From the IMG/VR virus record IMGVR_UViG_3300035660_000001, positions 64,001 through 128,000 of that record: a DNA stretch of 64,000 bases; one strand, written 5' to 3'. The translations under genes were made by a program, and so were the position numbers. Each line of letters starts with the position of its first letter. Within the stretch, counting starts at the first letter, position 1. The stretch is from a virus. The notes below the pieces were generated by a model, which made no database searches, had not been told where the DNA came from, and saw only the letters and a list, made by a program, of their open reading frames with translations. This document shows positions 57,553 to 58,090 of this stretch, piece after piece.

Positions 57553-57978
57553 ATGAAGCAGAACGACGTCGGAATCAACATCCAGCCGCCCGAGCAGGCG
57601 GTGGGGTCGCTCAGGGACGATCTCAAGAGGTGGCTGACCGTGAAGGCCAACCTCAGCGACATGCGGAAGGAAGTCGAGCGGCTCGAGGAGATCGAAGAGG
57701 GTATCCGGAGGGCGCTCGCTCCCGAGATCATGACCTTCCCCAACCAGCAGGTGGCGGTTGGAGATAGCACGATCGTGGCGTCGATCGCCCACAGGGACTC
57801 GCCCAAGTATAAGGATGCCTTCGAGCTCGCCCTCACGAAGGTCAATGAGGCGACGCAGGCCATCATAGCCGACGCCCTGGCCTCGACGATGGGTCACAGC
57901 GAGTGGCCGGAGCTCAAGGTCAAAGCCGGGAAGAAGCTCAAGGTCAAGGCCATCGTGGGAACGGTTCAGGTAGCCTGA
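57553..57978 (+). CDS. Hypothetical coiled-coil protein
   Basis: AAGGAG RBS; helical heptads. Confidence 0.55.
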   Translation: MKQNDVGINIQPPEQAVGSLRDDLKRWLTVKANLSDMRKEVERLEEIEEGIRRALAPEIMTFPNQQVAVGDSTIVASIAHRDSPKYKDAFELALTKVNEATQAIIADALASTMGHSEWPELKVKAGKKLKVKAIVGTVQVA

Positions 57979-58090
57979 GAGCCGAGGGGTGCGGGGGCGA
58001 CCTCGCAAGACGGTGTGCGTATCCGACACCATGACGCAGAGTCCACCCCCGCACTAAGGCCACGCAGGATATCCCAAGTAACCTGCAGGC
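57973..58090 (+). ncRNA. Twister ribozyme, type-P5 permutation (copy 1)
   Basis: P5 GCCTG/CAGGC; P2' GCC-GAGGG; P1 GTGCGGGGG/CCCCCGCAC; TAA at 58055-58057; P2 GGC; AC; P4 GCAGG/CCTGC around loop TCCCAAGT. Confidence 0.75.

Follow-up and report, generated by a model that had tools for sequence, protein, structure and literature searches.

The stretch analysed here, a window of 64,000 nucleotides, spans positions 64001-128000 of a virus record that is 160,139 bp long and has direct terminal repeats. It holds a block of small early/accessory genes in which a DUF932 gene, an ATP-dependent DNA ligase gene and genes for hypothetical proteins are followed by the candidate element, a DUF6891 gene, a further hypothetical gene, a gene for an HTH protein, a second RNA element, small ORFs and the gene of an IS110-family transposase. 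Both RNA elements lie inside a unit of approximately 4 kb, bracketed on one side by a sigma-70-like promoter, with an A/T-rich element further 5', and on the other by a terminator-like hairpin (Table 1). The gene on the 5' side of the candidate encodes 141 amino acids and ends in a TGA at 57976-78, and the gene on its 3' side, which encodes the DUF6891 protein, begins with an ATG at 58123. Among viral contigs the protein encoded upstream of the element has a single relative, in phage G001, and no relatives of the protein encoded downstream were found in them.

The leader and ribosome binding site that a preliminary description of the locus had placed 3' of the element were found at 58096-58125. 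The UAACCCCAA leader occurs seven times, all on the + strand and within 16 kb, and the same count, strand and span hold for the exact motif TAACCCCAA, which lies at positions 51416, 52085, 56883, 58096, 58522 and 60008 of the window and at 131213 of the genome. Each copy of TAACCCCAA sits a few nucleotides 5' of an AGGAG-type RBS; three of the copies are located approximately 25 nt 3' of sigma-70-like promoters, and two come after twisters. Two sequence relationships involve the RNA elements themselves: both ribozymes have at their L1/P1 junction a GGGGU to which the ACCCC of the motif is complementary, and the L4 of the candidate also contains CCCAAGUAA.

Three near-identical early promoters are present in the genome (window 51300-51385 and 56770-56856; genome ~131100-131190), each comprising TTGACT and a TATAAT-like hexamer separated by a 17-nt spacer and each carrying an A/T-rich AAAGATTTTTAAGA-type element on its 5' side. 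A promoter of perfect consensus lies at 60884-60912, 3' of the strong terminator-like hairpin, and beyond it, still within the phage early region and with small ORFs on its 5' side, is the IS110/IS116/IS902-family transposase gene (window 61833-62792, +; Pfam PF02371 and PHROG transposase). Near the right end of the genome an array of approximately 33 tRNA genes covers most amino acids (genome 154592-160097; L047:6792-12297), and a tRNA-Pro(CGG) gene is found near both genome ends (L042:9-85, in the genome 9-166 region, and L047:12221-12297).

Table 1. Coordinates of the candidate element, its paralogue and the flanking signals, numbered along the window.
Feature	Position	Strand	Remarks
Sigma-70-like promoter of the operon holding both ribozymes	56828-56856	+	11/12 match, extended -10
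P5 5' strand GCCUG	57973-57977	+	Last sense codon and start of the TGA; pairs with CAGGC 58086-90; kept in G001
P2 5' strand GCC	57981-57983	+	Pairs with GGC 58058-60; sequence identical in the canonical paralogue
L1 5' side GAGGG	57984-57988	+	Exact match to the Rfam consensus GAGgG
P1 domain	57989-58054	+	9-bp P1, GUGCGGGGG (57989-97) with CCCCCGCAC (58046-54); 48-nt irregular hairpin insert (57998-58045) closes P1
UAA cleavage triplet, predicted scissile bond U58055^A58056	58055-58057	+	Position relative to P1/P2 fits the consensus
P2 3' strand GGC (58058-60), extra C58061, T2 5' strand AC (58062-63)	58058-58063	+	
P4/L4 GCAGG-AUA-UCCCAAGU-AA-CCUGC	58064-58086	+	GCAGG 58064-68 pairs with CCUGC 58082-86
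P5 3' strand CAGGC	58086-58090	+	
UAACCCCAA leader, AGGAG-type RBS and ATG (58123) of the DUF6891 gene	58096-58125	+	
Canonical type-P5 twister paralogue, same operon, 1.9 kb 3' of the candidate	59932-60008	+	RF02684 50.1 bits, E 2e-7; R2 21.5 bits
Terminator-like hairpin	60833-60864		

Fold and core of the candidate element

The preliminary description took the element for a type-P5 twister ribozyme with an enlarged P1 and listed its parts in permuted order; each of these parts was recovered at 57973-58090 on the + strand, and the overlap with a stop codon holds as well, the TGA of the upstream ORF falling inside P5 and the P5-P2 joint. Within the L4 core (UCCCAAGU, 58072-79), U58072 is followed by the T1 strand CCCA (58073-76), by A58077 and by the T2 strand GU (58078-79). 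The T1 pseudoknot pairs GGG 57986-88 with CCC 58073-75, and A57985 can pair with A58076, giving three Watson-Crick pairs and an A.A pair. In T2, AC 58062-63 pairs with GU 58078-79, and GC 58064-65 offers an alternative partner with one G.U wobble. All of the catalytic and pseudoknot nucleotides (GAGGG, UAA, U-CCCA-A-GU) are in place. In characterised twisters the residues of GAGGG provide the GGG strand of T1, the A of the A.A pair and, beside P1, the presumed general-base G (PMC5408937, PMC11662667), while the position of A58056 is that of the presumed general acid (PMC11662667).

The minimum-energy fold of 57973-58090 alone consists of exactly P5, P2, P1 with its insert, and P4, and the prediction retains P2, P1 and P4 when flanking sequence is added. 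C58086 is contested between P5 and P4. A hairpin at 57965-79 would be a rival to P5 but was rejected as functional, as it is absent from G001.

The P1 loop had been credited with about 48 extra nucleotides, and an insert of 48 nt is indeed present at 57998-58045. The further pairings proposed within it, GGTGT with ACACC and TGCGT with ACGCA, fared less well: they would cross, with a loop 1 of zero length, and cannot coexist. Together with the insert, P1 forms an irregular 66-nt hairpin with internal loops and a predicted stability of -33 kcal/mol (z -3.9), which none of 200 shuffled sequences reached; the P1 hairpin of the canonical copy is predicted at -17.6 kcal/mol. No second copy of the insert exists in the whole genome, and Rfam returned no recognisable motif in it at E<=10. 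The insert lies in P1, the only helix that catalysis can do without, and would most plausibly act either as a stronger protective hairpin at an RNA 3' end or as a site for a protein or an RNase.

The core of the candidate departs from the twister consensus in its L4 flanks, in a missing junction and in a P2 of three pairs, three deviations that were absent from the preliminary description. In the known fold, a U.A trans pair and an "essentially invariant" G-C pair frame L4, T1 takes up four of its nucleotides and T2 two bulged ones, and P1 is dispensable for cleavage (PMC5408937). The candidate has U58072 and A58077, but the positions flanking them are A58071 and A58080, so that the L4-closing G-C pair is missing; the best substitute is a U58070-A58080 pair that leaves A58071 bulged and has an A.A layer below it. 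The AUA before and the AA after the L4 core add five nucleotides, and both are aligned as insertions by our covariance model R2. P2 and P4 are separated by the three nucleotides CAC, compared with five in the paralogue and six in the consensus, and if all five outer P4 pairs form there is no unpaired junction from T2 to P4; opening the three outer pairs would provide one. T2 formation, sterically plausible only in that case, probably needs G58064-A58066 as junction, which would leave a four-layer P4 and match the consensus length. P2 itself has three Watson-Crick pairs where the consensus has four; a possible fourth layer is the mismatched A57980/C58061, and R2 pairs AGCC with GGCC.

The tolerance of the fold to such changes can be judged from the assay of thousands of natural twisters, approximately 94% of which cleaved (PMC11662667). 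The ribozymes tolerated imperfections in P1, P2 and P4 and a variable L2 length. Insertions in L4 and defects of the loop-proximal P4 pair (P4 location 4) brought the cleaved fraction down to ~0.4-0.6 in CHiTA, and loss was severe when the catalytic A or G or the pseudoknots were damaged (PMC11662667). The severe defect classes of that study are inapplicable to the candidate, and the moderate ones apply.

Relation to twister-P5 RNAs

A descriptor was built on the Rfam Twister-P5 consensus, independently of the candidate, with a P1 loop of 3-90 nt allowed. In the 160-kb genome it matched twice, at the candidate and at 59941-59995, and in 150 dinucleotide-matched random genomes it gave no full match; the product of the partial rates corresponds to 1e-5 to 1e-4 expected matches per genome. 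The Rfam twister-P5 cmsearch that the preliminary description had named as a check was, in contrast, negative at 57973-58090: RF02684 gave no match there at its gathering threshold (37.6 bits), and none at E<=10 in scans of 701 nt and 136 nt. Its one match in the window is at 59941-59998 (50.1 bits, E 2e-7), with none elsewhere in the genome. The other Rfam matches at the candidate site were dismissed as chance: RT-2 scored 16 bits (E 0.19), and the rest were several hairpins of miRNA-like type.

The contribution of the long P1 to this negative result can be estimated from a control search for twister-P5 RNAs with a consensus core and 40-70 nt separating L1 and UAA, which produced two clear cases, in L048 and L051. 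These score 47-49 bits with Rfam, and consensus-core copies of normal length score 56-66 bits (one scan). A long P1 therefore costs only approximately 15 bits, and the failure of Rfam at the candidate must also stem from its core. Three further apparent long-P1 examples were rejected: those in L049 and L052 are normal twisters with a partial 5' duplicate in front, and in that of L050 P1 does not close. The duplicates are a curiosity in their own right, as in both L049:2551-2652 (-) and L052:938-1033 (-) a partial copy of the 5' end of a normal twister-P5 lies 40-50 nt 5' of it, GCAGAGGG coming first and then GCAGAGTG.

We then relied on model R2, constructed from six Rfam-validated, unrelated twister-P5 sequences that include the two long-P1 ones and exclude the candidate and its phage clade. 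With filters off, R2 aligned the candidate over its full length (57980-58085, model positions 1-53) at 17.0 bits. The corresponding E-values, 0.001 for 5 kb and 0.013 for 64 kb, are rough, and the background reaches 12-13.5 bits. Across the 64-kb window the canonical copy ranked first (21.5 bits, E 0.001), the candidate second at 17.0 and the next match scored 13.5. With default filters R2 missed both true copies, so detection of these phage copies is fragile, and only filter-free runs were used. A seed model, R1, was so narrow that the canonical phage copy itself escaped it; the MAFFT alignments A2-A4 did not keep structural register and were excluded from pair counts. Taken together, the identification as a type-P5 twister with an enlarged P1 stands as a statement of homology, on the descriptor, R2, paralogy and intercistronic context, and falls short where Rfam is concerned, the P1 insert being no sufficient excuse for the negative search.

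On sequence comparison, the candidate is a diverged paralogue of the canonical type-P5 twister 1.9 kb downstream. The two copies have in common their P2 arms, eight of nine P1 pairs, their P4 arms and the AC/GU pair of T2, and T1 shows a compensatory double change, with GGG/CCC in the candidate and UGG/CCA in the paralogue. Their P5 sequences are unrelated, each being made of the final codons of the gene that precedes it, and both pair. Each copy starts at the stop codon of the gene before it (for the paralogue, the TAG of the HTH gene) and has the UAACCCCAA leader and an RBS on its 3' side. From predicted cleavage site to start codon the distance is exactly 67 nt in both (58056-58123 and 59972-60039), despite different lengths of L2, L4 and spacer.

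Relative to RF02684, the candidate keeps the order P5-P2-L1-P1-UAA-P2'-L2-P4/L4-P5', the GAGGG, the UAA and the UCCCAAGU core, with T1 and T2 both possible. It differs from the family and from its paralogue in the 48-nt P1 insert, the AUA and AA flanks, the 3-nt CAC gap and a score under the Rfam reporting thresholds. Its location is that of other members. Among five unrelated complete twister-P5 copies that we fetched, the stop codon of the upstream ORF lies 3-4 nt 5' of P2 in four (in L049, L051 and L052), and an RBS and start codon follow 26-49 nt 3' of P4 at all of these loci except L048. The candidate shares this placement, typical of the family (stop codon 2-5 nt 5' of P2), as a stop codon overlaps its 5' edge and an RBS lies approximately 40 nt downstream. 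The long P1 and the intercistronic site recur together in L048:188-280, a viral contig with a 55-nt branched P1 domain, and in L051:7428-7511 (minus strand), a Eubacteriales MAG with a 47-nt hairpin. Unlike the candidate, these two have perfect consensus cores and Rfam scores of 47-49 bits, and their P1 sequences are unrelated to the insert. Long P1 domains are thus already known, and what is new here is the conserved 48-nt domain together with an altered L4 base and junction.

L051 and L052 hold two ribozymes each. In these unrelated bacterial MAGs (L051:7428-8000 and L052:544-993, both on the - strand) two consensus twister-P5 RNAs lie 400-520 nt apart around a single short ORF. The members of each pair have identical P2, L1 and L4, and the ends of an excised RNA could rebuild a complete twister.

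Conservation could be followed in one relative. Phage G001 (159.5 kb) has both elements in the same order, and its copy of the candidate is identical at 123/124 positions (99%), the sole difference being one extra U at the P1/insert junction. Outside the element identity drops to 78% in the upstream CDS and 67% in the leader/RBS, and the downstream gene is unrelated. A pattern scan for insert-bearing copies found only G001 among viral contigs and three further copies, identical to that of G001, in metagenomes. As these amount to only two sequence variants, no covariation is measurable within the element, and the block of 99% identity could come from recent recombination. A scan with the pattern GCCGAKGGGGTGCGGGG, which has one G more than the candidate, returned only the canonical copy of G001 and chance matches, and a blastn search of the phage collection was negative.

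Predicted role in the early operon

Homology, fold compatibility, conservation and genomic context lead us to favour, with a probability of approximately 0.6, a model in which the candidate is an active, divergent twister that cuts the early operon mRNA at U58055^A58056; catalysis, the resulting RNA ends and a physiological effect are predictions of this model from sequence. We file the candidate, which is below the Rfam threshold and lacks the L4-closing G-C pair, as a divergent variant with putative catalytic membership in the twister class. During co-transcriptional folding the long P1 hairpin would form first, followed by P2, P4 and the two pseudoknots (T1, GGG/CCC plus A.A; T2, AC/GU), after which G57988 would be the general base, and A58056 the general acid, for cleavage at U58055^A58056. 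The upstream mRNA would retain its stop codon and acquire a 3' end 77 nt past the stop, carrying the very stable 66-nt hairpin and a 2',3'-cyclic phosphate. Owing to the type-P5 permutation, the upstream RNA would keep both the stop codon and the P1 hairpin, so that a hairpin would close its 3' end. The downstream mRNA would begin with a 5'-OH and the P4 hairpin, which is short, and would then carry the UAACCCCAA leader and an accessible RBS; the RBS of this RNA is predicted to be unstructured. Acting together, the two ribozymes would divide the transcript of approximately 4 kb into three pieces, uncoupled from one another in stability and translation.

A division of this kind agrees with a long-standing hypothesis, itself unproven, in which bacterial and phage hammerhead or twister ribozymes process polycistronic mRNAs (reviewed in PMC6765202). 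The ribozymes of that review resemble the candidate in being self-cleaving motifs between genes in phage-associated operons, with differential stability or translation of the pieces proposed (PMC6765202); their role is still a hypothesis, and that of the candidate is a prediction. The arrangement also invites comparison with the early region of a well-studied phage. The RNase III sites between the early genes of T7 are irregular hairpins of approximately 60 nt, located between cistrons, within which the host protein cuts, and a stabilising hairpin is left at the 3' end of the upstream mRNA. By contrast, the predicted cut of the candidate would be catalysed by RNA and would lie 1 nt 3' of the hairpin.

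The main competitor of an active ribozyme, clearly less probable in our judgement and yet to be taken seriously, is a twister-derived relic without cleavage, whose fold (above all the 66-nt P1 hairpin and the P4 hairpin) would have been kept as a structural intercistronic element serving as an exonuclease barrier, a translation-uncoupling spacer or a protein-binding site. The negative Rfam search, made although the long-P1 controls are found, is consistent with such decay, as are the loss of the invariant L4-closing G-C pair, the five extra L4 nucleotides and the short junction (PMC5408937), and the reduction of CHiTA activity by L4 insertions and P4 location 4 defects (PMC11662667); conservation, with two near-identical variants only, cannot tell catalysis from structure. 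A purely helical role would, however, have no need of the catalytic and pseudoknot nucleotides, which are intact and include the T1 and T2 complementarity, and T1 has co-varied with respect to the paralogue. Cleavage persists in most natural candidates that have several imperfections (PMC11662667), and the placement of the element equals that of active-type copies.

Less likely again is that the enlarged P1 is the key functional part, whether as a host RNase III-type site comparable to the T7 hairpins or as the binding site of a factor, from phage or host, by which ribozyme cleavage would be gated or replaced. The irregular 66-nt structure, with its internal loops and unusual stability, would suit either role, the insert is perfectly conserved where the flanks diverge, and the position is intercistronic in an early operon. 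On the other hand, Rfam finds no motif in the insert at E<=10, the genome holds no other copy and viral contigs and metagenomes outside the clade none of this kind, no covariation is obtainable, and the long P1 domains of unrelated sequence in other twisters suggest that P1 length drifts freely. As for a chance likeness to a twister in a GC-rich intergenic hairpin, the negative Rfam result is the observation in its favour, set against a descriptor without a match in 150 random genomes, a second place for the candidate in the window under R2, and arms and context common with the validated paralogue; chance resemblance is effectively excluded.

We also considered that the two twisters might act as a pair. 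In this scheme they would excise a cassette RNA of approximately 1.9 kb (A58056 to U59971) with 5'-OH and 2',3'-cyclic phosphate ends, which would meet via the shared P2 (GCC/GGC) as a chimeric twister. Host RtcB, or reversal of the ribozyme reaction, would then ligate these ends to give a circular phage mRNA, which would be the natural equivalent of the circular RNAs engineered with flanking twisters. We regard this as very improbable, and no phage-encoded RtcB was found.

If the candidate is an active twister, its cleavage would widen the accepted twister consensus: neither a junction of the usual length nor the near-invariant G-C pair closing L4 would be indispensable, and such copies would be shown to escape current covariance models. 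Were the candidate not to cleave, a ribozyme fold would have been reused as a structural RNA. Either outcome is an incremental addition to a well-known class rather than a new kind of RNA. An active candidate would also make the operon a clean natural system for testing whether self-cleaving ribozymes of phages and bacteria process polycistronic mRNAs, as its two ribozymes are served by one promoter, have a leader in common and would give rise to identical processed 5'-UTRs of 67 nt.
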